64,000 nt of DNA from Bacteroidales bacterium (GTDB lineage Bacteria > Bacteroidota > Bacteroidia > Bacteroidales > VadinHA17): NCBI GenBank assembly GCA_003141715.1, contig PLNF01000140.1, forward strand, positions 27,427-91,426. Direction: 5' to 3'. The first letter of the stretch is position 1. Each line of letters opens with the position of its first letter. The notes under the pieces were generated by a model. The model saw only the letters and a list, made by a program, of their open reading frames with translations, searched no databases and was not told the DNA's origin. The position numbers and the translations under genes are program-made. Below are positions 20,133-39,011 of this stretch, one piece after another.

Positions 20133-21467
20133 CTAATTCAGATCAACGATTAAATCATTATCCTTAGGGGGTAGATCAGTATACAAACCATAAATTATAT
20201 TTGCCAGATCGGGTGAAATTGCAGCAATTGCCTGAATCTCTGTATTTGTCTCAGCCGAAAGAGTCTCATCTCCCCCAAAATGTGTCAGCATAGCCTCAGC
20301 AAAAACAGGAGAAATCTGAGTTGCAACATCTTCAGGCACATTATAAGGTGCGCTCATGAGCATATATTTAGCCTGAATTTCAAACCCATTCAGTGAAAAG
20401 GCTTTTTCATATTCGGGGAAGGGAACCCCATTTAATCCAGGGTAGTTTATGTGTTCAATATGTTCTGTTTTGATATATAGCTTATTATTAACCAGATTTA
20501 TCATTCTGTATGGAGAAGCATAAATCACGGGAGAGCCTGTCTCTATATCAACCAGTGACAGGTTACCAAGAATGCGTTGTGTAGCATCGTTTGCATGGAA
20601 ATGACCCGTAAACATTACTTTTAAGCCTGCCTTCATAAACTCATCGGCCCTGGCACCCCAGTTATCGACAAGATAGTCGGGAAATATTACTGATTCACCC
20701 ATGAAATGCTCGACGATTCCATGATGCATCATTCCAATAACGGTTTTGCCCTTCGCTCTGGCATCAGCGAGCTGTTTCTTTGCCCATTGCATGGTAGCGT
20801 CTTTAATATTCCCGGCCACTACACAGTAAAGCGGTGTATTGTTATAATATTCATTGGCATCAATGGCCAGAATGCGCAGGTCTTTAAAAGGTTCCGAAAC
20901 ATAACTCAATGAGGCGGGATCTTTCGCTATAGCAGTCTTGTAACCATAATCTGCATACAACGATTTAAAGTTGTCTGGTGTGATGGTTGGTACCGGGACA
21001 GTATTATCTCCATTAAATAGTTTTGCGTCAGGATTGTTAATGTCATGGTTCCCTGGTATAACTAGAACCTTAATATGGTTTAAGCTTAAAATCTGTAATT
21101 GTTTTATAATCGATTTGTGGCTTATAAGCTCGCCATCTTTGGTAAGGTCGCCTGAAATTAATACCAGATCAGGCTTTTCAACCAATAACCTGTGTATGAT
21201 CTCATGCAGAATGGCTCCACTTTCAGCCAATAATTTTGGGTCCTGCATAAGGTACATCTGAAATGCACTTCCGTCTTCCTTAAGCAATGATGGGTCCATA
21301 TAGTGCAGGTCAGATAAAACGGCAATTTTCAAGGTGTTAGGACTGAAAATAAAGTTGTTATCATTGGATTTTGGCGCTGGTTGAAAACACAGTTCCTGGT
21401 CCTCTTTGTTACAGGCGACAATGGCGAGTAACATAAAAATGGGAACAAAAATTCTAAATTTTTTCAT
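20133..21467 (-). CDS. Metallophosphoesterase (calcineurin-like) lipoprotein
   Basis: Signal peptide with Cys (LLAIVACNK). Phosphoesterase motifs DLHYMD, GDLTKDGE, GNHD and GHFH. Preceded by regulatory module copy A. Confidence 0.8.
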   Translation of the reverse strand: MKKFRIFVPIFMLLAIVACNKEDQELCFQPAPKSNDNNFIFSPNTLKIAVLSDLHYMDPSLLKEDGSAFQMYLMQDPKLLAESGAILHEIIHRLLVEKPDLVLISGDLTKDGELISHKSIIKQLQILSLNHIKVLVIPGNHDINNPDAKLFNGDNTVPVPTITPDNFKSLYADYGYKTAIAKDPASLSYVSEPFKDLRILAIDANEYYNNTPLYCVVAGNIKDATMQWAKKQLADARAKGKTVIGMMHHGIVEHFMGESVIFPDYLVDNWGARADEFMKAGLKVMFTGHFHANDATQRILGNLSLVDIETGSPVIYASPYRMINLVNNKLYIKTEHIEHINYPGLNGVPFPEYEKAFSLNGFEIQAKYMLMSAPYNVPEDVATQISPVFAEAMLTHFGGDETLSAETNTEIQAIAAISPDLANIIYGLYTDLPPKDNDLIVDLN

Positions 21468-21500
21468 AGGAATAGTTTTTAGTCAGTCTACTCGTATAGC

Positions 21501-21729
21501 TTTTCGACATTCGCTCCCTACTCTTTAAAGGATTTTCAGGTACCTCCTTATATTCCTGCATTTAAGCAGGCAACTTTACATAAGTTAGGGATTTAAGTTA
21601 AAGGGGTAATTCAATAATCGGGCCAATTCATATATCTATGTGACACACAGATGTTTAAAAACAATCAGCATTTTTAGTTGAGTTATTTTTGTAGCGTTTT
21701 GCTACAGTGAGCTGATTCAGAATACTACA
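21501..21729 (-). promoter_or_regulatory. Regulatory module copy A (sigma-54-like -24/-12, TGTAGC dyads, conserved leader)
   Basis: Alignable end to end with 24447-24679. Minus strand reads TTGGCCCGATTATTGAA at 21626-21610. TGTAGCGTTTTGCTACA at 21690-21706. CCTGC-N6-GCAGG at 21555-21570. The conserved leader block 21501-21550 ends 34 nt before start codon 21467. Confidence 0.6.
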
Positions 21730-21784
21730 TTAACACCTGATTGCCGACACATCCAGCATTAATGGATTTACCTTTTAGAGGAAA

Positions 21785-22291
21785 TCATTGGAAATTAATT
21801 AATAAAGTCAATCCAACAGAAACTTCATTATTAAACTTGAAATAGTCATAAGAACCCACGTATGGCAATAACTGAAAGTTAAATGTCGTTTTGACCTGAT
21901 CTCTGAATACCATATTATTCACTTTGGCTACATGAATAGCGTCAAAGAGCGACCAGAGATGAAGTCCCCCCAACACCCAACGCACTGTATTAAGCGATAT
22001 TACGTTGCTAAAAGATCCACTGAAAGGCCTCTTTCTGATTCTATATTTAATAATATTTAAACCAACAAAGCCTCCAAAAAAACCGAAACCTCTGGCTGTT
22101 TCGCCCTCCAGAATCTGACCTAACCCGGGTATAACAAAAGAAGCAAACCCCATAACTCCGGGATTAAAAGGATCCCCATACTGATAATGGTAAGCCTTAA
22201 GATCATACTTCGTTTTATTGATGCTGTATTGGGCATCTGTCATCAGGTTAAGAATAATTAGTCCTGCTATTATCAAAGCTAAAATTTTCAT
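21785..22291 (-). CDS. Hypothetical envelope protein, PGLGQ-motif family (paralog of 22362-23126)
   Basis: ATG 22289-22291 gives the signal-like N-terminus MKILALIIAGLIILNLMTDAQ; the ORF-track TTG 22384 overlaps the upstream gene. Shares GDPFNP...IPGLGQ... and LWSLFDAIHVAKVNNMVFR blocks with the neighbour. Confidence 0.6.
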   Translation of the reverse strand: MKILALIIAGLIILNLMTDAQYSINKTKYDLKAYHYQYGDPFNPGVMGFASFVIPGLGQILEGETARGFGFFGGFVGLNIIKYRIRKRPFSGSFSNVISLNTVRWVLGGLHLWSLFDAIHVAKVNNMVFRDQVKTTFNFQLLPYVGSYDYFKFNNEVSVGLTLLINFQ

Positions 22292-22361
22292 AAACAGAGG
22301 TATCAGACTGTTGACAAATCGAAAATAAATATTCTCATCTGTTAATTCATATCTGCCAAAT

Positions 22362-23126
22362 TTAAAAGGTAACCTTAAAACCAAGAGCTATAGGAATATT
22401 GTGTTTAAGACCATAATCAGGCGTGTTCAGGAAGGGCTTAATATTAAGATTATATGAGGATCTGTGCTTGATTCTCAGGACTAAATTATTGACTTTAGCC
22501 ACGTTTACAGCATCTGCTATGGACCATAGATCGATACATAAAGCGCCAACGAGTCCGGCTTTGAATACCTGAAATGGGTCCACACCATAATTTCCACCGG
22601 CGCTTGACCAATACTTAAATAATCCCTCTGCTGAAACTGCCAGACAACCTGTGAAACCCGTAAGGAATAGTACTCCTCTCCCTGGTTTTCCTGATATCAT
22701 TTGGCCCAGTCCGGGAATTATCAAAGATGCAATACCGGCACTGATTGGATTAAATGGATCACTCTTTTTAAAGGAGTATGCCCTGGTGTCGATTGAGATT
22801 TTCGTAATACCATCAAGCGGAATGCTTATTTCATCGTTATTTATTCTTATTAACGAATCATTTGAGACATATATTTTGAACTTTTCATCTATTGAATAAT
22901 TACCCTTGCCAAAATCTACTTTGCCTGAAATTCTCCCGTTTGAGATTACGGCGTTTTTGACAAAGGTGTAAGTTGATTTTTTCCCGTGAAATGAATAATT
23001 CCCGCCAGAAACGGGCAGATCAGTTTTATTAATAAATTTTGCGCTGTAACAACCTGTTATTTGTAAAAACGTTATGAAGATCACTAATTTACAGCTGATC
23101 TTTAGAAGTTGTGAATGATTTCTCAT
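22362..23126 (-). CDS. Hypothetical lipoprotein, PGLGQ-motif family
   Basis: Lipobox FLQITGC. N-terminal beta-rich domain, then SDPFNPISAGIASLIIPGLGQMISGKPGRG and DLWSIADAVNVAKVNNLVLR. Ends ...ALGFKVTF, an OMP-like aromatic C-terminus. Confidence 0.6.
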   Translation of the reverse strand: MRNHSQLLKISCKLVIFITFLQITGCYSAKFINKTDLPVSGGNYSFHGKKSTYTFVKNAVISNGRISGKVDFGKGNYSIDEKFKIYVSNDSLIRINNDEISIPLDGITKISIDTRAYSFKKSDPFNPISAGIASLIIPGLGQMISGKPGRGVLFLTGFTGCLAVSAEGLFKYWSSAGGNYGVDPFQVFKAGLVGALCIDLWSIADAVNVAKVNNLVLRIKHRSSYNLNIKPFLNTPDYGLKHNIPIALGFKVTF

Positions 23127-23173
23127 TTCAGATGATTTTAAAATAATCCGTACAAAAATTAAGGTATATTGAC

Positions 23174-23653
23174 TCAGAAACTGTAAGTTAAGCTAAATCC
23201 TGAACAATATGATCGTGTATAACTGTTTAAGATTATTGCCGGAGAGATATTCACCGATCCTAACGATGGATAATTTCTACTGATTACTGATTTAATCGTG
23301 CCGATCCGGCCGAGACAAACTATGCTGGCAATTGAACCTGCGATAAATGTTCCTGCACCGATTATCATTCCGACATCATCTACCCCTTCATCACCAAGCA
23401 GTTGTTCAAAGAAAGATGGATCATCGCTCATTCCCGGATGCAGGTACTTGCAAATAAGAAAGATAGCTCCTCCTGTCCCTGCAAATCCGGCAGCAAGCTT
23501 AAGACCGGTTTTTGAATGCACTAATGATTCTTCAAGCTGGCCTCTTGTAAGAAGATTAATATCTGTGACCTGATACCTTTTAACATACCATTGCCCTGAC
23601 GAATTAATAACATAGATTAACAGGAGAAATGCTGATATAAATACTTTTTTCAT
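23174..23653 (-). CDS. Hypothetical secreted/membrane protein
   Basis: Signal peptide MKKVFISAFLLLIYVINSSGQ. Two Gly-rich hydrophobic segments (LAAGFAGTGGAIFLI; MIIGAGTFIAGSIASIVCL). C-terminus ...GFSLTYSF. I recognise no family. Confidence 0.55.
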   Translation of the reverse strand: MKKVFISAFLLLIYVINSSGQWYVKRYQVTDINLLTRGQLEESLVHSKTGLKLAAGFAGTGGAIFLICKYLHPGMSDDPSFFEQLLGDEGVDDVGMIIGAGTFIAGSIASIVCLGRIGTIKSVISRNYPSLGSVNISPAIILNSYTRSYCSGFSLTYSF

Positions 23654-23755
23654 TTGATGCTGTTGTAAGTTATTTATATTTAGAATATTAGAACAAAGTC
23701 AAGAAAGACGCCTTCTTTTTCAAAAACAGGCGCGAGCCCCGGCAAAATGAAGCAT

Positions 23756-24412
23756 CTAGTTGGAACCCAGTAACACCGTGAAACCAAGTTTGAAAGCTAT
23801 CGTTCCCTGGACTGTCCTTTCATCATTCGGATTATTTTCTTTTGCTTTTTCTGATGTCGAATTATAACCAGCCATCATATCGAATGTAACTTTATCACCA
23901 AGTTTTACGGCCAGCCCGGCTCCTCCTCCAAATGACGTGAGACTGTTCTTGTTTGAACTACTGGAATATGGATCTTCATATTTGTTTGTCTCTGATCCAA
24001 ATAGACTACTTATCTCAAAGAAAGGCATAACCTTACTTCCGGAAATGTAATATCGAATAAATGGTCCCAGACCGAAAGAAGTCATAGTGCTTTTCCCGCC
24101 ACTCTTAGGTTTATCTATGGAAGTTCCAATACACAAATTCAAACCCAGAGCCAGATTGTTAAAGAAAAAATATCCAAACTTAGGTAAGAGATTTAAGGTC
24201 GTTACCTTTAGAACGTCAGGATCTACATTAGTTAGTAAGTTTGCTTTGTATTTAATGCTGGAAAATCCCAGGCTCATCAGGTCCGATCCATAATTGATAT
24301 ACCCAAATGATGTTGAAAGACCAATTAGTGATCTGCCTTTGCTTACTTGGGCTTCGGTCACTGATAAAGCAATTAAGCACAAAACCGTAATTAAAATAGT
24401 TACTTTTTTCAT
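23756..24412 (-). CDS. Small outer-membrane beta-barrel protein (OmpW/OMP_b-brl-like)
   Basis: ATG 24410-24412 gives MKKVTILITVLCLIALSVTEAQ. Alternating amphipathic beta-strands with G/S/N/D turns. The ORF-track start at 24460 falls inside the conserved leader block, which is interrupted by an in-frame stop in copy A. Confidence 0.65.
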   Translation of the reverse strand: MKKVTILITVLCLIALSVTEAQVSKGRSLIGLSTSFGYINYGSDLMSLGFSSIKYKANLLTNVDPDVLKVTTLNLLPKFGYFFFNNLALGLNLCIGTSIDKPKSGGKSTMTSFGLGPFIRYYISGSKVMPFFEISSLFGSETNKYEDPYSSSSNKNSLTSFGGGAGLAVKLGDKVTFDMMAGYNSTSEKAKENNPNDERTVQGTIAFKLGFTVLLGSN

Positions 24413-24446
24413 TGTCTGAAATATTGCGTTTTGCTTACTCTTAAGT

Positions 24447-24679
24447 TTTTCAGCATTCACTCCCTACTCTTTAAAGGATTTTCAGGTATCTCCTTAATTG
24501 CCTGCATCCAAGCAGGCAATTTTAATCAGGTTAAAAACATACTATTGATAAAGGAGGAATTCAATAATCGGGCCAATTCATATATTTATATGACATACAG
24601 TCATTTAGAAGCACTGATCATTTTCAATTGAATTGTTTTTGTAGCGTTTTACTACAATTAATTGATTCAGAACGCTACA
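24447..24679 (-). promoter_or_regulatory. Regulatory module copy B (sigma-54-like -24/-12, TGTAGC dyads, conserved leader)
   Basis: Minus strand reads TTGGCCCGATTATTGAA at 24576-24560. TGTAGCGTTTTACTACA at 24640-24656. AACGCTACA at 24671-24679. Perfect ATTGCCTGC-N6-GCAGGCAAT at 24497-24520. The leader block 24447-24496 ends 35 nt before start codon 24412. Confidence 0.6.
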
Positions 24680-24696
24680 ATTATTATCTTTACTAA

Positions 24697-24719
24697 TATT
24701 TGCCTGTTGACAGCAAATA
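24697..24719. promoter_or_regulatory. Near-perfect palindrome TATTTGCCTGT-TG-ACAGCAAATA, 19 nt upstream of the response-regulator ATG
   Basis: Read directly from the sequence. It shares the TTGCCTG half-site with 24497-24520 and 27648-27671. Confidence 0.4.
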
Positions 24720-24737
24720 ATCATTCATATACCTTAT

Positions 24738-26123
24738 ATGAAATCAGACAGATCTGGTAGCGTATTGGTCGTTGACGATGATAATGATGTTTTATATACG
24801 GCACGGCTTGTATTAAGAGGCCTGTTTGGCAAAGTTGATACGCTTGATCGTCCGGGTTTAATACCTGATTACCTGAAAACATGCAAGTATGATGTGATTT
24901 TACTTGACATGAATTATACCCGCGGCTGCACATCAGGCAAAGAAGGATTGGAATGGCTTGAAAAAATACTTAGTATTGATCCCACAGCCTGCGTGTTAAC
25001 CACTACTGCTTACGGTGAAATAAACCTGGCTGTTCAGGCTATGAAAAAAGGTGCAGTCGATTTCATTACAAAACCATGGAACCGGGAACAGCTTGTTACA
25101 TGTGTAAGTAATGTTTTGTCAATGGAACCTGGGGAGAGAAGTGTCAGCAAGGTTAAGGGTAATCACACCAGACCAGTAAATCAGGGGAACAATAAATACC
25201 CTGAAATTATCAGCAGGTCTCCAGTCATGGCTAAAATAATGGAAACCATTAAAACAGTTGCTGCGACAGATGCCAATGTTTTAATCCTCGGGGAAAATGG
25301 AACAGGCAAGGAGCTGGCAGCCTGGGCTTTGCACAGGGAATCATTAAGAAGTCAGAACTCCTTCGTTCACGTTGATCTGGGCTCTATTCCTGAAACTCTT
25401 TTTGAAGCTGAATTATTCGGCCATACACGTGGTGCTTTTACAGATGCAAAGGAAGACCGGGCTGGAAGATTTGAAGTAGCTTCCGGTGGAACATTATTTC
25501 TCGATGAGATAGGAAACCTCAGCATGCCATTACAGGCAAAGATTCTTACTGCGATTCAGAACAGGGAAGTGGTCAGGATAGGAAGTAACCATCCAGTACC
25601 TGTAAATATCAGGCTGATATCAGCCACTAATATGCCTTTGTACGAAATGGCTGATGCGTTCGAATTCAGGCAGGATCTCCTCTATCGTATTAACACAGTT
25701 GAGATAATGCTCCCCCCACTAAGAGAAAGAAGAGAAGATATCAGCCTCCTCGCAGATTATTATCTTGAACTTTTTTCCAGGCAATATGGCAAACAAGGAA
25801 TAAAACTTAAGGAAGATACATTACAGAAACTGAAAGAGTACCACTGGCCGGGAAATATCAGGGAACTTGCGCACACCATTGAAAGAGCGATCATCCTGTG
25901 CAAATGCAGTACCCTAACACCTGATGATTTTATGCTGCGGGTAAAATCTTCACGTGGTCAACTTACTGATGAACCTGCAATCAGTGTTGAAGATTATGAA
26001 AAAAAAGCAATCAGCACAGCTATGAACAAACATAATGGGAACCTTTCGAAAGCAGCGGAAGAAATAGGCATTGCCCGGAGTACCCTGTACCGGAAGATTG
26101 CCCGATTCGGGATAGAAACCTGA
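24738..26123 (+). CDS. Sigma-54-dependent response regulator (NtrC family enhancer-binding protein)
   Basis: REC domain (VLVVDDDNDV...DVILLDMNY), AAA+ sigma-54 interaction domain (Walker A GENGTGKE, GAFTDA variant of the GAFTGA loop, LFLDEIG), C-terminal Fis-type HTH (AAEEIGIARSTLYRKI). Confidence 0.9.
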   Translation: MKSDRSGSVLVVDDDNDVLYTARLVLRGLFGKVDTLDRPGLIPDYLKTCKYDVILLDMNYTRGCTSGKEGLEWLEKILSIDPTACVLTTTAYGEINLAVQAMKKGAVDFITKPWNREQLVTCVSNVLSMEPGERSVSKVKGNHTRPVNQGNNKYPEIISRSPVMAKIMETIKTVAATDANVLILGENGTGKELAAWALHRESLRSQNSFVHVDLGSIPETLFEAELFGHTRGAFTDAKEDRAGRFEVASGGTLFLDEIGNLSMPLQAKILTAIQNREVVRIGSNHPVPVNIRLISATNMPLYEMADAFEFRQDLLYRINTVEIMLPPLRERREDISLLADYYLELFSRQYGKQGIKLKEDTLQKLKEYHWPGNIRELAHTIERAIILCKCSTLTPDDFMLRVKSSRGQLTDEPAISVEDYEKKAISTAMNKHNGNLSKAAEEIGIARSTLYRKIARFGIET

Positions 26124-26202: not shown

Positions 26203-27618
26203 ATGCAAAAACTCTGGAATTATATTTCAAACCTTGGAACGACCGGAGAAGATAAACAGTTGAATAACAGAACCATTGTTCTTAGTAATCAGCTCAATTT
26301 TGTGATGTTCTTCTCTATGTTTTTATTGCTACTAACAACTATTGTTACTCTTCTGCTAACAAATGATACTATTTATTATGGAACACTACGGGTGGCGATC
26401 CTTCTGATTGTTACCTTTTTGAACATGCTACTTGCACGATATGGTTTTATTCAACTTAGCAGGCTCTCTCTTATCTATCTGCCTCCAATAGTATTCCTGC
26501 TTGGCCCGACATTGATAGGATATGTAGAGGAGGAAAGTTATACTTATTACCCTTACGTCTTGATTTGTGTCTCGATAATCCCACAACTTTTACTACATCC
26601 AAAGAATGAAAAACTTCTCTATTGGTTTTCTCTGGCTTATTATTTTGTTTTAGTCATATTCATTGACAAAATAATGGTTAAGTTTGGAACAACCAGTTTC
26701 CCGATTGTCGACAGGATTAATACTTTTTATCCTTTCTACAAAATTGCGCAAATAGGACTTTTCATGTTTATAAACGCCAGCATCTATTACCTTCGGATGC
26801 TTAATTTCCATTTTGAGGAGATATTGAACTCTAAGAACAATGAACTTGACCTGCAAAATATAGAGTTGAGAGCTCAGAAAGATGAGATTGAACGGCAAAA
26901 GGATGAACTGGTCAGTAAAGAGATCAATACATGGCAGAAACTGGTAAATATTATATCTCACGAGATAGTGAACTCAGCCATCCCGATTACCAATCTTGCC
27001 GGGATGACTGCTCAAATGCTTGAAGATGAGTCGGGGGTAGTTCAGAAACCCGATAAAATCGGCGAGGAGGTTACCGAAGATATTCACTACAGCTTAAGAA
27101 TTATTGAATCCCGTACGCAGGGATTGATTAATTTTGTAAAGGCTACAAAAAGTCTTACTGATATTCCTAAGCCAAACCTGCGGAAGATTTTCCTGCGTGA
27201 TCTATTCGAACGGGTTTTTATACTTTACAAGGCTAAGTTTAAGGAAACAGGCGTAAAGTTTGAAATGGAAATTATTCCCCCTGCCCTTTTTATTGAGGCC
27301 GACCTGGAACTTATTGAGCAGGTAATCATAAATCTTTTTCAGAATGCACTGGAAGCTATGCTGGAAACTTCAGATCCCGGACTTTCAATAATTGCGAGAA
27401 AAAATGAATCAGGTCATGTACAGATATCAATTTCTGATAATGGTAAAGGCATTAGTGATGAAGTACTCGAACGGATATTCCTCCCTTTTTATTCTACAAA
27501 AGCTAATAACTCGGGAATCGGCTTGAGTCTGTCACAACAGATAATGATGCTGCATCATGCCCGTCTCGAAGTAAGTTCCACTATAAATAAGGGTGCAACT
27601 TTTATAATGATATTCTAA
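26203..27618 (+). CDS. Membrane sensor histidine kinase
   Basis: About 6 N-terminal TM helices, a coiled-coil, the H-box IISHEIVNSAIPITNL, and an HATPase_c domain (NLFQNALEA, SDNGKGI, GIGLSLSQQI). Confidence 0.85.
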   Translation: MQKLWNYISNLGTTGEDKQLNNRTIVLSNQLNFVMFFSMFLLLLTTIVTLLLTNDTIYYGTLRVAILLIVTFLNMLLARYGFIQLSRLSLIYLPPIVFLLGPTLIGYVEEESYTYYPYVLICVSIIPQLLLHPKNEKLLYWFSLAYYFVLVIFIDKIMVKFGTTSFPIVDRINTFYPFYKIAQIGLFMFINASIYYLRMLNFHFEEILNSKNNELDLQNIELRAQKDEIERQKDELVSKEINTWQKLVNIISHEIVNSAIPITNLAGMTAQMLEDESGVVQKPDKIGEEVTEDIHYSLRIIESRTQGLINFVKATKSLTDIPKPNLRKIFLRDLFERVFILYKAKFKETGVKFEMEIIPPALFIEADLELIEQVIINLFQNALEAMLETSDPGLSIIARKNESGHVQISISDNGKGISDEVLERIFLPFYSTKANNSGIGLSLSQQIMMLHHARLEVSSTINKGATFIMIF

Positions 27619-27748: not shown

Positions 27749-28675
27749 ATGGGATCAGGTTTACATCAATATCAAAATACTGAAAAATCACTTTACCATT
27801 TTAGCTTCCTAGGGGATATTAAAGTGAATGGTATTTACTTTAATAGTTTTGCAAAATTTTTAAACCTCTATTATTTCATGAGGAAGGAACATACTCAGGA
27901 TTTTTACTCTATTATTTTATTTACCGAAGGTTATGGCAGTATAATAATCAATAATGTGAGTTATACTATTCAACCCCAAACCATATGCCTTGTTGCCCCG
28001 GGCCAGTTGCACTCATTTGAGGGTCTTGAAGATGTTGAGGGAATTATCTTTTTCTTTTGTCAGGATTTTTATGTTGAAGAATTCAGTTTTATACGGCTGT
28101 TAAATGTATTTTCATATACATCACAAACAAGCGTTAATGTTTGTAATCCCTGCTTTGCTTTATCTGACAGCGAGTTCAACCTTTTCATTTCCACAATAAA
28201 ATCGATAGAGAGCGAATACGAGTCTTATACCCCTTCCAATAATTCTGCTATTATAATTCGTTCCCATTTGAATATCATGCTGTTAAAACTTACTGAGCTG
28301 TATGAGGCAAAATCAGGAAAATCAAATAATAACGACAGCATCCTCATCCATTCCTTGTCGCATATGGTGGATTCTTACTTTATTCAGGAACAACAATTAG
28401 GGTTTTATACTTCGGCATTTAATATCTCTGAAAGCCAGCTAAATGATTTATGCAATCAGCATTTTAACTGTGGATTTAAAAAAATATTACAAAACAGGCT
28501 TATGCAGGAAGCAAGAAGACTGCTTTTATCCTCTGACCTGTCAGTTTCAGAGATTGCCTATAAGTTGAATTTTGAGGATAATTCCTATTTCAATAAGGTT
28601 TTTAAAAATAAAACGGGCCTTACCCCTAAAAGGTTTCGCGATATTCACAAAAGATTAGTACCACAAAAACCCTGA
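27749..28675 (+). CDS. AraC-family transcriptional regulator
   Basis: N-terminal cupin-like sensor domain (HTQDFYSIILFTEGYG). C-terminal double HTH (LSVSEIAYKLNFEDNSYFNKVFKNKTGLTPKRFR). Confidence 0.85.
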   Translation: MGSGLHQYQNTEKSLYHFSFLGDIKVNGIYFNSFAKFLNLYYFMRKEHTQDFYSIILFTEGYGSIIINNVSYTIQPQTICLVAPGQLHSFEGLEDVEGIIFFFCQDFYVEEFSFIRLLNVFSYTSQTSVNVCNPCFALSDSEFNLFISTIKSIESEYESYTPSNNSAIIIRSHLNIMLLKLTELYEAKSGKSNNNDSILIHSLSHMVDSYFIQEQQLGFYTSAFNISESQLNDLCNQHFNCGFKKILQNRLMQEARRLLLSSDLSVSEIAYKLNFEDNSYFNKVFKNKTGLTPKRFRDIHKRLVPQKP

Positions 28676-28734
28676 TTTTTACCATTTTCAATAGTCTTAC
28701 CATTTTACTTTTGCATCATAAAATTGTAAGAATT

Positions 28735-29328
28735 ATGAAAAAAACTGTTTTTTTGTCAGCGATAATTATTGTCTCATTTTTCGCCTGTAAAAAGGAAGAT
28801 ACCAAGGCGCCAATTCAAGCTCAGACTTTTGAAATAAATTCCACCGGTTCAACTGCCTGGAAATACTTTAGTTTTGCCAGTAATGACACTATAAACGTGC
28901 CAGACCCCGCCAACTCAGCGGCATGGGATATTGCTTTCCAGCGTTACCGGATCAAAACCAATGGGGGGAAATCGGGCAGTGGCTCCGGAAGTGCTGCAAA
29001 TTCTTATCAGAAAGGGCTAATCGGTTTTGATGCATTAAAGATCGTTTCAGATACCGCAACATTTGCATCGGATGATTCAATAAGTATTGCAATTCAGCAA
29101 GGCTATGCCTACTATGTGGTTAATCCCGTATTATATACTTGGTTCACCCTGGAGTTTGCAACCCAGGGAACGCAGATCGTACCAACCGATTACATATTTA
29201 TTGTTAAAACCGGTACAGGCAAATATGCGAAGGTCTGGTTCAAAAGCTACTACAGTCCTGAAAATATATCAGGTTATGTCACTTTTCAGTATAAATATCA
29301 ACCGGATGGATCAAAAAATCTTGAATAG
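28735..29328 (+). CDS. hmuY: HmuY-family (haem-binding-like) lipoprotein
   Basis: ATG 28735 gives MKKTVFLSAIIIVSFFACKK. The WDIAFQRYRIKTNGGKSGSG block is characteristic of HmuY-like proteins. It is immediately followed (TAG-ATG abutting) by a TonB-dependent receptor. Confidence 0.65.
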   Translation: MKKTVFLSAIIIVSFFACKKEDTKAPIQAQTFEINSTGSTAWKYFSFASNDTINVPDPANSAAWDIAFQRYRIKTNGGKSGSGSGSAANSYQKGLIGFDALKIVSDTATFASDDSISIAIQQGYAYYVVNPVLYTWFTLEFATQGTQIVPTDYIFIVKTGTGKYAKVWFKSYYSPENISGYVTFQYKYQPDGSKNLE

Positions 29329-31431
29329 ATGCTGAGAATATTAAAGCCGGTTATTTTTTTATTATTTATTCCTTCAATCGCTTTTTCCCAGGGAGTCAGC
29401 ATTTCCGGCCATGTTACCGGAACAGACAGCAGTCCAGTTACAGGGGCAACCATTACATTAAAAGGAACTACATTCGGAACGGTAACAGATAAAAAAGGAT
29501 TTTATAAAATGAACAAAATAAAACCGGGGACATATACATTACGTGTATCGTTTCTGGGATTCGAGACACTGGAGCGGTCGGTTGCAATTCTTAAAGAAAA
29601 TAACCATGTCGATTTTTCCCTCAATGAATCAAATATCGATTTAAACGAGGTTGTGGTGACTGGTACGAAATCAGAAAAAGCATTAAAAAATGTTCCTGTT
29701 ATTACACAGGTAATCAGTGCCCGTAAAATGCTTGAATTGGGTATTACCAATGTTACTGATGCACTTCAGAATATGGTACCAGGATTTAATGTGAGCCATT
29801 TCGGGACGTTGACTTCAGTTACACTTCAGGGGATGGATGCAAAGTATGTCTTATTTCTTATAGATGGAGAAAGGATAGCCGGGGAAGTAAATGGGGATAT
29901 TGATTATTCAATGCTTAACCTCGAGAACATTGACCGGATTGAGGTTATCAAAGGCGCTTCATCGTCTCTTTATGGTTCCAATGCCATAGGGGGTGTCATA
30001 AATATTATAACTAAAAAGATCGATGATCCTTTTGATGCAAAGTTCTATTCCCGATACTCAAAATATAATGAATTGTACTCAGGTGGAAGCGTTGGCCTGA
30101 AACAAGGAATTATCGGATCAAGGACAAGCTTTAATCTCAGTCATACCGATGGTTACGACATCACTCCGGAGACTTCACACGACTGGACCCAGAATCCATA
30201 TTCTTCATTCAGTATAAGTCAGAAATTTGAAATTACACCTTCCTCGCGTCTTTCTATTGTTCCTTACTTTACCTATTATCAGTTTGAACGAGGTAATGTA
30301 AGCGCTCGACCTGCCCATGACCTTTATATTGACCTGAATGCCGGTTTGAAAGGACAATACTATTTCGAAAAAAATTCCATCGATTTTTCATATTATCGCG
30401 ATCGTTATAACACTTACGATGTCCTCGAACTTTTGAATAACAAAAGGGATACTGCTTCCTATGATTTCATTCAGACAGTCAGAACGCAGGGGAATTTTCA
30501 TCTTTCTGATAAAAACAACTTAACGGACGGACTGGAATATAATTCTGAACGTCTCTTCTCAATAAGAGTAGCGGGAGGATTGAAAAGTGCAGGGGAGTCC
30601 GTGTTTTATGTACAGGAAGATATTGGTTTTGGAGAACACTGGGATCTGATTGCTGGTATGCGGGTAAGCTATCACAGTAATTATGGTTTGAATGCCGCAC
30701 CCAAGATATCAGTAATGTTCAAACAAGGGTTCTTAAATTTCAGAGCTTCTGCCGGGACAGGTTTCCGTTCTCCCGCCCTGAAAGAGTTATACTTCAACTT
30801 TGACCATTTTGGTGAATTTTATGTAATTGGCAATCCACAATTAAAGCCTGAATCATCAAAGTATATATCCGGATCAGTTGAATTTTCAAAACCGTGGAAC
30901 AACTTATCGGTCACAGTTTACAGGAATGTTTTGTCAAATATGATAACAAATCGTTGGCTACCCGATACCGTGCAGCTGATCCAACAATATGAAAATGTTT
31001 CCAGCGCTTCAGTTAATGGGATTGATTTCATATCGAAACAAAAGATAATTAATGGATTCTGGCTGAGCGCAGGATATAGCTATGTTCATTCACACGACAA
31101 TGAGACACAGCTTCAATTGTATGGTACGACAAAACATTCGGGGAATATTGCAGCAGATTATAATTTCAGAAAAAAGGATTATTCTTTCACGGCTCAAATA
31201 TATTGTAAGCTGATGGGGCAAAAATTCTATGAGATTACTACAGACGGAACTTCTCAGGACAGGCCGTATGCTGACTGGAGGATAACTATTTCGCAGGAAT
31301 ATAAGCGGCTTCGGATATCAACAGGACTGGATAATATATTCAATATAGTAATTCCGCAAAACATAGATTTTATTTCGCCCGGAAGACGTTTTTTTGTTGG
31401 CATGAATATTGATTTTGGAAAAATAAAGTGA
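29329..31431 (+). CDS. TonB-dependent receptor (HmuR-like) with an N-terminal CarboxypepD_reg domain
   Basis: Signal peptide, carboxypeptidase-regulatory-like domain (ISGHVTG...TITLKGT...GFYKM), plug domain (IEVIKGASSSLYGSNAIGGVINIITK) and a beta-barrel ending ...FFVGMNIDFGKIK. Confidence 0.9.
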   Translation: MLRILKPVIFLLFIPSIAFSQGVSISGHVTGTDSSPVTGATITLKGTTFGTVTDKKGFYKMNKIKPGTYTLRVSFLGFETLERSVAILKENNHVDFSLNESNIDLNEVVVTGTKSEKALKNVPVITQVISARKMLELGITNVTDALQNMVPGFNVSHFGTLTSVTLQGMDAKYVLFLIDGERIAGEVNGDIDYSMLNLENIDRIEVIKGASSSLYGSNAIGGVINIITKKIDDPFDAKFYSRYSKYNELYSGGSVGLKQGIIGSRTSFNLSHTDGYDITPETSHDWTQNPYSSFSISQKFEITPSSRLSIVPYFTYYQFERGNVSARPAHDLYIDLNAGLKGQYYFEKNSIDFSYYRDRYNTYDVLELLNNKRDTASYDFIQTVRTQGNFHLSDKNNLTDGLEYNSERLFSIRVAGGLKSAGESVFYVQEDIGFGEHWDLIAGMRVSYHSNYGLNAAPKISVMFKQGFLNFRASAGTGFRSPALKELYFNFDHFGEFYVIGNPQLKPESSKYISGSVEFSKPWNNLSVTVYRNVLSNMITNRWLPDTVQLIQQYENVSSASVNGIDFISKQKIINGFWLSAGYSYVHSHDNETQLQLYGTTKHSGNIAADYNFRKKDYSFTAQIYCKLMGQKFYEITTDGTSQDRPYADWRITISQEYKRLRISTGLDNIFNIVIPQNIDFISPGRRFFVGMNIDFGKIK

Positions 31432-38922: not shown

Positions 38923-39011
<89 letters not shown>

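Follow-up and report, generated by a model that had tools for sequence, protein, structure and literature searches.

A duplicated upstream module beside an NtrC-type two-component system of an uncultured Bacteroidales bacterium joins a predicted sigma-54-type promoter to a DUF805b leader

The DNA analyzed here is a stretch of 64,000 nucleotides from an uncultured Bacteroidales bacterium (contig PLNF01000140.1, positions 27,427 to 91,426, assembly GCA_003141715.1), hereafter called the window. It harbors a two-component system on the plus strand, consisting of an NtrC-family response regulator and its cognate sensor histidine kinase, and two transcription units on the minus strand, a cluster of four genes headed by an outer membrane protein (OMP) gene and the gene of a metallophosphoesterase (Table 1). 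The minus-strand starts of the metallophosphoesterase (21467) and of the OMP cluster (24412) are each preceded by a repeat of ~230 bp in common orientation and with ~82% identity, referred to as copy A and copy B, respectively. In the initial annotation both copies were read as a shared promoter/leader which links the two units to the adjacent two-component system. This reading held with respect to promoter and leader. It had missed that the repeat is a composite of two parts and that its gene-proximal block belongs to the Rfam family DUF805b.

Alignment of 21401-21829 with 24347-24779 by MAFFT revealed unbroken homology from ~21487/24433 to 21729/24679. A repeat search of the window gave two gapless blocks, one of 90 nt with 83% identity (21498-21587 versus 24444-24533) and one of 131 nt with 82% identity (21599-21729 versus 24549-24679), so that the end-to-end alignment in the same orientation, initially made by eye, was reproduced. 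The same applies to the identical core of 28 nt, AATTCAATAATCGGGCCAATTCATATAT, which is located at 21608-21635 and 24558-24585. The seemingly fixed distance of 34-35 nt to the start codon was found to be the point at which the initial alignment had stopped; weaker homology runs on beyond it and includes a second structured RNA unit. At the other end, homology stops at 21729 and 24679, precisely where the outer upstream site described below begins. Among long repeats in the window this pair is the only one. Further copies were sought, as the initial annotation had suggested, with a profile hidden Markov model of the promoter part, which detected the two copies in the window and no others in a total of 1.06 Mb searched, 120 unrelated Bacteroidota loci included.

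Read on the minus strand, each copy begins with TGTAGYRTTCTGAATCA, which is succeeded after 23-24 nt by TGTAGYAAAACGCTACA, a perfect dyad of 17 bp. These two elements are referred to as the outer (UAS2) and inner (UAS1) upstream sites and are candidate binding sites of the NtrC-type regulator. The palindrome is not found anywhere else in the 64 kb. Further downstream, inside the identical core, lies TGGCCCGATTATTGAA, which fits the sigma-54 pattern TGGC-N7-TTG at canonical spacing: in TGGCCC-GATTA-TTGAA the GG, the TTG and the 4-5 bases expected between TGGCAC and TTGC are present, but A takes the place of the C of the -12 GC. The regulator that is divergent from copy B carries a Sigma54_activat domain, the sigma-54-interacting (AAA+) domain expected of a cognate enhancer-binding protein. 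The link of the two units to a neighboring two-component system thereby gained a concrete partner, and both units would belong to a putative regulon. The regulator sequence is identical on several metagenome contigs, and its homologues are labeled Bacteroidales or Bacteroidota.

The leader part of each copy contains a hairpin, followed on the gene-proximal side by a match to RF02914 (DUF805b), a family of clan CL00115. Both matches span positions 1-35 of the 35 model positions and exceed the gathering score of 35.6 bits. Each of them (unit 1) is abutted by a second unit of the same appearance (unit 2), with one base in common. A structural pattern of P1, loop, P2 strand, GAAAA, P1 strand, GAGUA and P2 strand, in which complementarity was demanded, had four matches in the window, which are the four units, and none in 50 shuffles. 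Comparison of unit 2 of copy A with that of copy B showed three predicted pairs that are changed compensatorily. While unit 1 ends 49-50 nt from the start codon, unit 2 brings back the spacing that is usual for the family, with 18-20 nt. Unit 2 is predicted to be a second, divergent pseudoknot of the same architecture as unit 1. When the hairpin at 24497-24520 is read on the plus strand it is followed by TTTTA and resembles an intrinsic terminator; no plus-strand gene reads into it, and weak Rfam matches to rseX and AsxR at this place are spurious.

Table 1. Positions of genes and of known, candidate and predicted elements in the window, with one operon of related loci
Feature	Position	Strand	Description
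Metallophosphoesterase, 444 amino acids (aa), target of copy A	20133..21467	-	Pfam Metallophos, 1.4e-14; lipoprotein-type signal sequence
Four-gene cluster, target of copy B	21785..24412	-	Open reading frames (ORFs), Pfam
OMP beta-barrel, weak Pfam match	23756-24412	-	First gene of the copy B cluster
Exported protein, 159 aa	23174-23653	-	No Pfam family
Lipoprotein-like protein, 254 aa	22362-23126	-	No Pfam family
Membrane protein, 152-199 aa	21785-22384	-	No Pfam family
NtrC-family response regulator / sigma-54 enhancer-binding protein	24738..26123	+	Pfam Response_reg, Sigma54_activat (4e-62), AAA lid, HTH_8; divergent from copy B
Sensor histidine kinase, cognate	26203..27618	+	Pfam HATPase_c; NCBIfam kinase families
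Copy A outer upstream site UAS2, TGTAGTATTCTGAATCA	21713..21729	-	TGTAGyrTTcTGAATCA across 13 stacked modules
Copy A inner upstream site UAS1, TGTAGCAAAACGCTACA	21690..21706	-	17-bp palindrome; candidate binding site of the NtrC-type regulator
Copy A predicted sigma-54-type promoter, TGGCCCGATTATTGAA	21610..21625	-	GG at -24, TTGA at -12; within the identical core
Copy A predicted transcription start	21599	-	12 nt past the -12 position; leader ~132 nt
Copy A leader hairpin, CCTGC-TTAAAT-GCAGG	21555..21570	-	Sequence, folding; counterpart in copy B extended to 9 bp
Copy A DUF805b unit 1 (RF02914, cis-regulatory)	21515..21549	-	Rfam, 44.4 bits; fits the pseudoknot pairs
Copy A DUF805b-like unit 2 (predicted)	21486..21516	-	GAGC GAAT GTC GAAAA GCTA TAC GAGTA GAC; ends 18 nt before ATG
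Copy B outer upstream site UAS2, TGTAGCGTTCTGAATCA	24663..24679	-	Sequence, module stack
Copy B inner upstream site UAS1, TGTAGTAAAACGCTACA	24640..24656	-	Palindrome scan
Copy B predicted sigma-54-type promoter, TGGCCCGATTATTGAA	24560..24575	-	Within the identical core 24558-24585
Copy B predicted transcription start	24549	-	From promoter geometry; leader ~137 nt
Copy B leader hairpin, ATTGCCTGC-TTGGAT-GCAGGCAAT	24497..24520	-	Sequence, folding
Copy B DUF805b unit 1 (RF02914)	24461..24495	-	Rfam, 42.6 bits
Copy B DUF805b-like unit 2 (predicted)	24433..24462	-	GAGT GAAT GCT GAAAA ACTT AA GAGTA AGC; ends 20 nt before ATG
Five-gene operon	L130 3374-9797; L132 3380-9795; L133 3353-9793		Absent from the window

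Related loci were obtained in two ways. Contigs were fetched for regulators with 73-85% identity (loci L130-L135), and a metagenome collection free of this species' own contigs was scanned with a 20-nt core. The scan returned three loci, of which L127 and L128 were used; L129 was discarded as a chance match inside a coding region. In every related locus, the genes of regulator and kinase adjoin each other and an operon runs divergently from them, the upstream region of which keeps UAS2, UAS1 and TTGGCCYGRTWRTTGRA at unchanged spacing. The recognition-helix region ARSTLYRKI of the regulator is likewise kept among these orthologues. Additional modules precede internal genes in L130, L132, L127 and L128, giving a total of 13 modules at nine loci, all of them ahead of gene starts. 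The distance from the start of the palindrome to the TGG is 81 nt in 11 of the 13 modules and deviates by one base in L132rr and L135rr; in all 13, both upstream sites lie within the ~80-150 bp that are expected for activator sites of sigma-54 promoters. When the modules were stacked, the promoter elements were found to be kept while spacers and leaders are unrelated between relative loci. The island-like conservation described for the pair in the window thus recurs with the same islands in the relatives, where the intervening DNA has diverged.

The genes behind the module differ between loci. The first target is the OMP cluster in the window and in L127, a 243-259-aa protein together with a metallophosphoesterase in L131, L134 and L135, and in L130, L132 and L133 an operon of five genes, which encode a YegS-family lipid kinase, a PEMT-DUF3419 fusion (BtaA-like), a product without assigned identity, an Orn/Arg decarboxylase and a class II aldolase. 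Judged by these gene families, the operon and the metallophosphoesterase hint at membrane-lipid remodeling. Within the cluster of the window, the 199-aa and 254-aa proteins share a C-terminal DPFNP...IPGLGQ...RG...membrane domain and are therefore paralogues, for which neither Pfam nor NCBIfam has a family; in the close relative L127, neither of the two genes is present between module A and the 159-aa gene.

DUF805b exceeds the gathering score also in L127 and L130, and in L127 module A and in L132 the P1 stem is changed from AAGG/CCUU to AUGG/CCAU, which is compensatory. In L130 the pseudoknot leader is still present ahead of the OMP and metallophosphoesterase genes, neither of which has its own promoter module. 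In L132 this holds for the OMP gene, whereas the metallophosphoesterase gene has not kept the pseudoknot leader. Since the promoter part recurs with unrelated leaders and the leader occurs without the promoter, the two parts are separable and are merely joined at both sites of the window. The leader hairpin is probably dispensable, because it is lost in L127 module A and absent from the OMP leader of L130. Module A of L127 (2479-2744), compared with 21468-21729 and 24413-24679 of the window, is a mosaic: its 5' leader is 80% like the B type and 60% like copy A of the window, and its 3' part does not differ from copy A, which indicates recombination or gene conversion between copies. As copies recombine, a core that is identical within one genome does not by itself prove selection, and the argument for selection comes from the stack across species.

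DUF805b was reportedly put forward as a candidate cis-regulatory motif of Bacteroidota in the screen of Weinberg et al. in 2017. A description of its function was not found in the literature searched, and the main text of that study does not mention the motif (Weinberg 2017, PMC5737381). A pattern scan with one genome per species returned at least 120 loci (L007-L126) with 124 pattern matches spread over Bacteroidota, and the following numbers refer to the matches listed. Positions 5 and 18 can pair in 97% of the sequences (~50% expected) and positions 10 and 34 in 89% (~45% expected). For each of the two pairs double changes were present in 38 of 98 sequences, and the observed score was reached by none of 500 shuffles. 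The pair 5-18 is part of the P1 stem (positions 2-5 with 18-21), which covariation thus supports, and together with 10-34 it argues for an H-type pseudoknot; the structure line of cmscan shows a hairpin only. In most matches the distance from the end of the motif to an ATG is 19-29 nt. Exact TAnnTTTG, the housekeeping -7 element of Bacteroidetes, is enriched 10-80 nt upstream; sigma-54-like sites are no commoner there than in random windows, and the idea that DUF805b is a general sigma-54 leader was therefore rejected. Genes downstream of the 103 instances listed are heterogeneous, with a median of 131 aa and signal-peptide-like N-termini in about half of them, and do not share the common pathway that would be expected for a metabolite riboswitch. 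They include very short cysteine-rich or GG-leader peptides resembling bacteriocins or ribosomally synthesized and post-translationally modified peptides, rhodopsin-like proteins, DUF805 proteins and lipoproteins. Abutting or near-tandem units are also found at unrelated Bacteroidota loci, namely L074 (7754-7816), L078 (1196-1258), L053 and L063.

Compared with known systems, the promoter part resembles sigma-54 regulons of the NtrC/ZraR/AtoC type in the receiver-AAA+-HTH_8 regulator with adjoining kinase, in two copies of a 17-bp dyad site (6-N5-6) centered ~98 and 121 nt upstream, in the canonically spaced GG (-24) and TTG (-14 to -12), in the divergent first target and in the presence of several target promoters in the neighborhood. 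It differs from them in a -12 dinucleotide that is GA or GG and not GC, in the GAFTDA loop of the regulator, in its host from uncultured Bacteroidales/Bacteroidota and in its targets, which are envelope proteins without assigned function and, in relatives, the lipid-type operon. The leader agrees with RF02914 in that the full 35-nt model is matched above threshold, 5' of a gene of a Bacteroidota genome, and in that P1 and the loop-tail pairs fit. In contrast to the usual DUF805b, the motif lies further from the start codon, with the gap filled by the divergent unit; the promoter is predicted to be of the sigma-54 type and the genes downstream encode an OMP and a metallophosphoesterase, not DUF805. 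Further, the leader is reminiscent of preQ1-I riboswitches, which are H-type pseudoknots of ~34 nt with a short P1, a P2 between loop and 3' tail, conserved A-rich loops, a position near the start codon and occasional tandems. Unlike preQ1-I, it shows no sequence similarity to that class, has no known ligand and precedes genes without a common metabolic theme. Shine-Dalgarno pairing is little used in Bacteroidota, and for this reason the sequestration mechanism of riboswitches is not directly transferable. Both parts are thus of known kinds, a predicted enhancer-dependent sigma-54 promoter and an Rfam DUF805b leader, and current understanding is not overturned. The TTGRA element at -12, the GAFTDA loop and the tandem of predicted pseudoknots are deviations of moderate interest.

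Several observations speak against a sigma-54-type promoter followed by two pseudoknots. At -12, 13 of 13 modules have TTGAA or TTGGA and none has the canonical TTGC, and the loop by which the regulator would contact sigma-54 reads GAFTDA (residues ~231-236) in place of GAFTGA, as it does in 117 of 120 orthologues. The gene of sigma-54 itself, rpoN, lies outside the DNA covered. Unit 2 was not detected by the Rfam model in either copy, even at E<=10, and the sequences from which it was derived are two paralogous types with close orthologues. Minimum free energy folding of the leaders was weakly better than that of shuffled sequences (z -1.1 and -2.5), which is uninformative. The missing GC at -12 would suit a housekeeping (sigma-A, TAnnTTTG) or extracytoplasmic function-type promoter, in which the core and palindromes would serve as operators of a conventional activator or repressor. 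Near-matches to TAnnTTTG, TAAAGTTG and TAAAATTG, are indeed located just upstream of the leader hairpin, and other DUF805b leaders listed often have this element 10-80 nt upstream. However, no exact TAnnTTTG was found on the minus strand of either module, the near-matches are not kept in relatives, whose leaders are unrelated, and the conserved core has exact sigma-54 spacing and always stands beside a regulator whose sole known output is sigma-54 activation. We therefore regard such a promoter as unlikely. A generic scan for sigma-70 promoters and terminators, which does not model Bacteroidetes promoters, gave nothing above shuffles, and a Bacteroidetes-specific sigma-54 consensus was not found in the literature searched. 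The fetched loci contained one unrelated enhancer-binding protein for comparison of the TTGA at -12. The use of sigma-54 in Bacteroidota and tolerated non-canonical -12 elements have been documented (PMC12316311); sigma-54 has been linked to envelope functions, and positions -11/-12 vary naturally (PMC3162934).

Even less probable is that the likeness of the copies is historical and not functional, as it would be after a recent segmental duplication or in a small dispersed or mobile repeat. Recombination or gene conversion as seen in the L127 mosaic can alone keep stretches identical. Yet neither terminal inverted repeats nor target duplications were seen around the copies in the window, and in place of the many gene-start-independent copies of an element similar to a miniature inverted-repeat transposable element, there are two copies in 64 kb, none in the 120 unrelated loci, and 13 modules which all precede gene starts. 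Moreover, the homology ends at a candidate binding site, the islands are those conserved in relatives at 73-85% regulator identity, and promoter and leader occur separately there. The earlier preference for a shared promoter/leader over a selfish repeat is strengthened by the sigma-54 geometry of the core, by the 17-bp palindrome and by the placement before gene starts in relatives. As remote as a historical origin is, in our estimate, a coding function of the gene-proximal block, be it that the OMP is extended N-terminally to 234 aa from a GTG at 24460, or that a conserved upstream ORF begins at the ATG 6 nt past DUF805b. The 234-aa form, with an extension of 16 codons (24413-24460), is annotated by many gene callers (proteins P0121-P0169), its AEKLKSK is shared without change by 22 orthologues whose remaining sequence diverges to 56%, and in both copies an ATG opens an ORF of 15-18 codons, the end of which reaches or overlaps the main start. 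In copy A, however, the homologous block is interrupted by stops and is not in the reading frame of the gene, and an extension of the OMP would sit ahead of a canonical signal peptide. The upstream ATG is missing in orthologues that read VKAEK or MSAEK, and the two upstream-ORF peptides are unrelated to each other. The invariant stretch coincides with the GAAAA/P1/GAGUA core of RNA unit 2, in which the differences between A type and B type compensate each other in pairs. On the grounds of frame and stops in copy A, the lost ATG and this coincidence, both coding variants were rejected, in agreement with the initial view that the conserved block is non-coding. We read AEKLKSK as the product of annotation pipelines that translate an RNA element, with the GTG inside unit 2 leading to systematic mis-annotation.

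An activator-driven sigma-54-type promoter at both copies, which would make the two units one regulon, remains in our judgment the probable explanation. According to this model, the kinase would phosphorylate the NtrC-type activator, which would bind the palindrome TGTAGYAAAACGCTACA and the adjoining half-degenerate site, centered at ~-98 and ~-121, and spend ATP to open the complex of sigma-54 RNA polymerase on TGGCCCGATTATTGAA. Transcription would begin ~12 nt downstream, near 21599 and 24549, so that the OMP cluster and the metallophosphoesterase would be turned on jointly by one signal without a sigma-A-type promoter of their own. The promoter part of ~120 bp would then be followed by a leader of ~135 nt, composed of the canonical H-type pseudoknot and the divergent second unit, the 3' end of which lies ~20 nt from the start codon. 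The tandem pseudoknots may act in cis at the post-transcriptional level, by influencing how translation is initiated or what becomes of the mRNA. Such a role is favored over that of a pathway-specific metabolite switch because of the tight spacing to the ATG, the independence of promoter class and the heterogeneous gene context.

With this assignment an otherwise anonymous two-component system of an uncultured Bacteroidota lineage gains a testable regulon with a probable operator, a promoter and at least two target units, and the lipid-type operon among the targets of relatives is in line with the published view of sigma-54 as a regulator of the cell exterior. For the orphan motif DUF805b, the new points are a covarying H-type pseudoknot, tight spacing to the start codon, the lack of a single promoter class, tandems and mis-annotation. 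More speculatively, and with considerable doubt on our side, pseudoknots of the DUF805b type could be a phylum-wide, promoter-independent device for the control of translation initiation, fixed ~20 nt upstream of start codons. If so, they would act as an enhancer that recruits ribosomes or proteins, or as sensor of a global signal, in organisms largely without Shine-Dalgarno pairing, and the two abutting units would place a sigma-54 envelope regulon under a second control that acts after transcription. A co-variation of activator, sigma factor and promoter, as suggested by GAFTDA together with TTGAA/TTGGA, is possible; promoters and activator of the envelope regulon would then have moved jointly away from the GC at -12 and from GAFTGA.

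Downstream of the kinase (27749-31431, plus strand), genes for an AraC-family regulator, an HmuY-like protein and a TonB-dependent receptor were found. Their synteny with the two-component system extends to L131 and L132, whereas L130 and L133-L135 lack them. The minus strand also encodes a tRNA of 88 nt at 38924-39011, which has a long variable arm, is matched by the Rfam tRNA model with 54.8 bits and is syntenic in L130 and L135.

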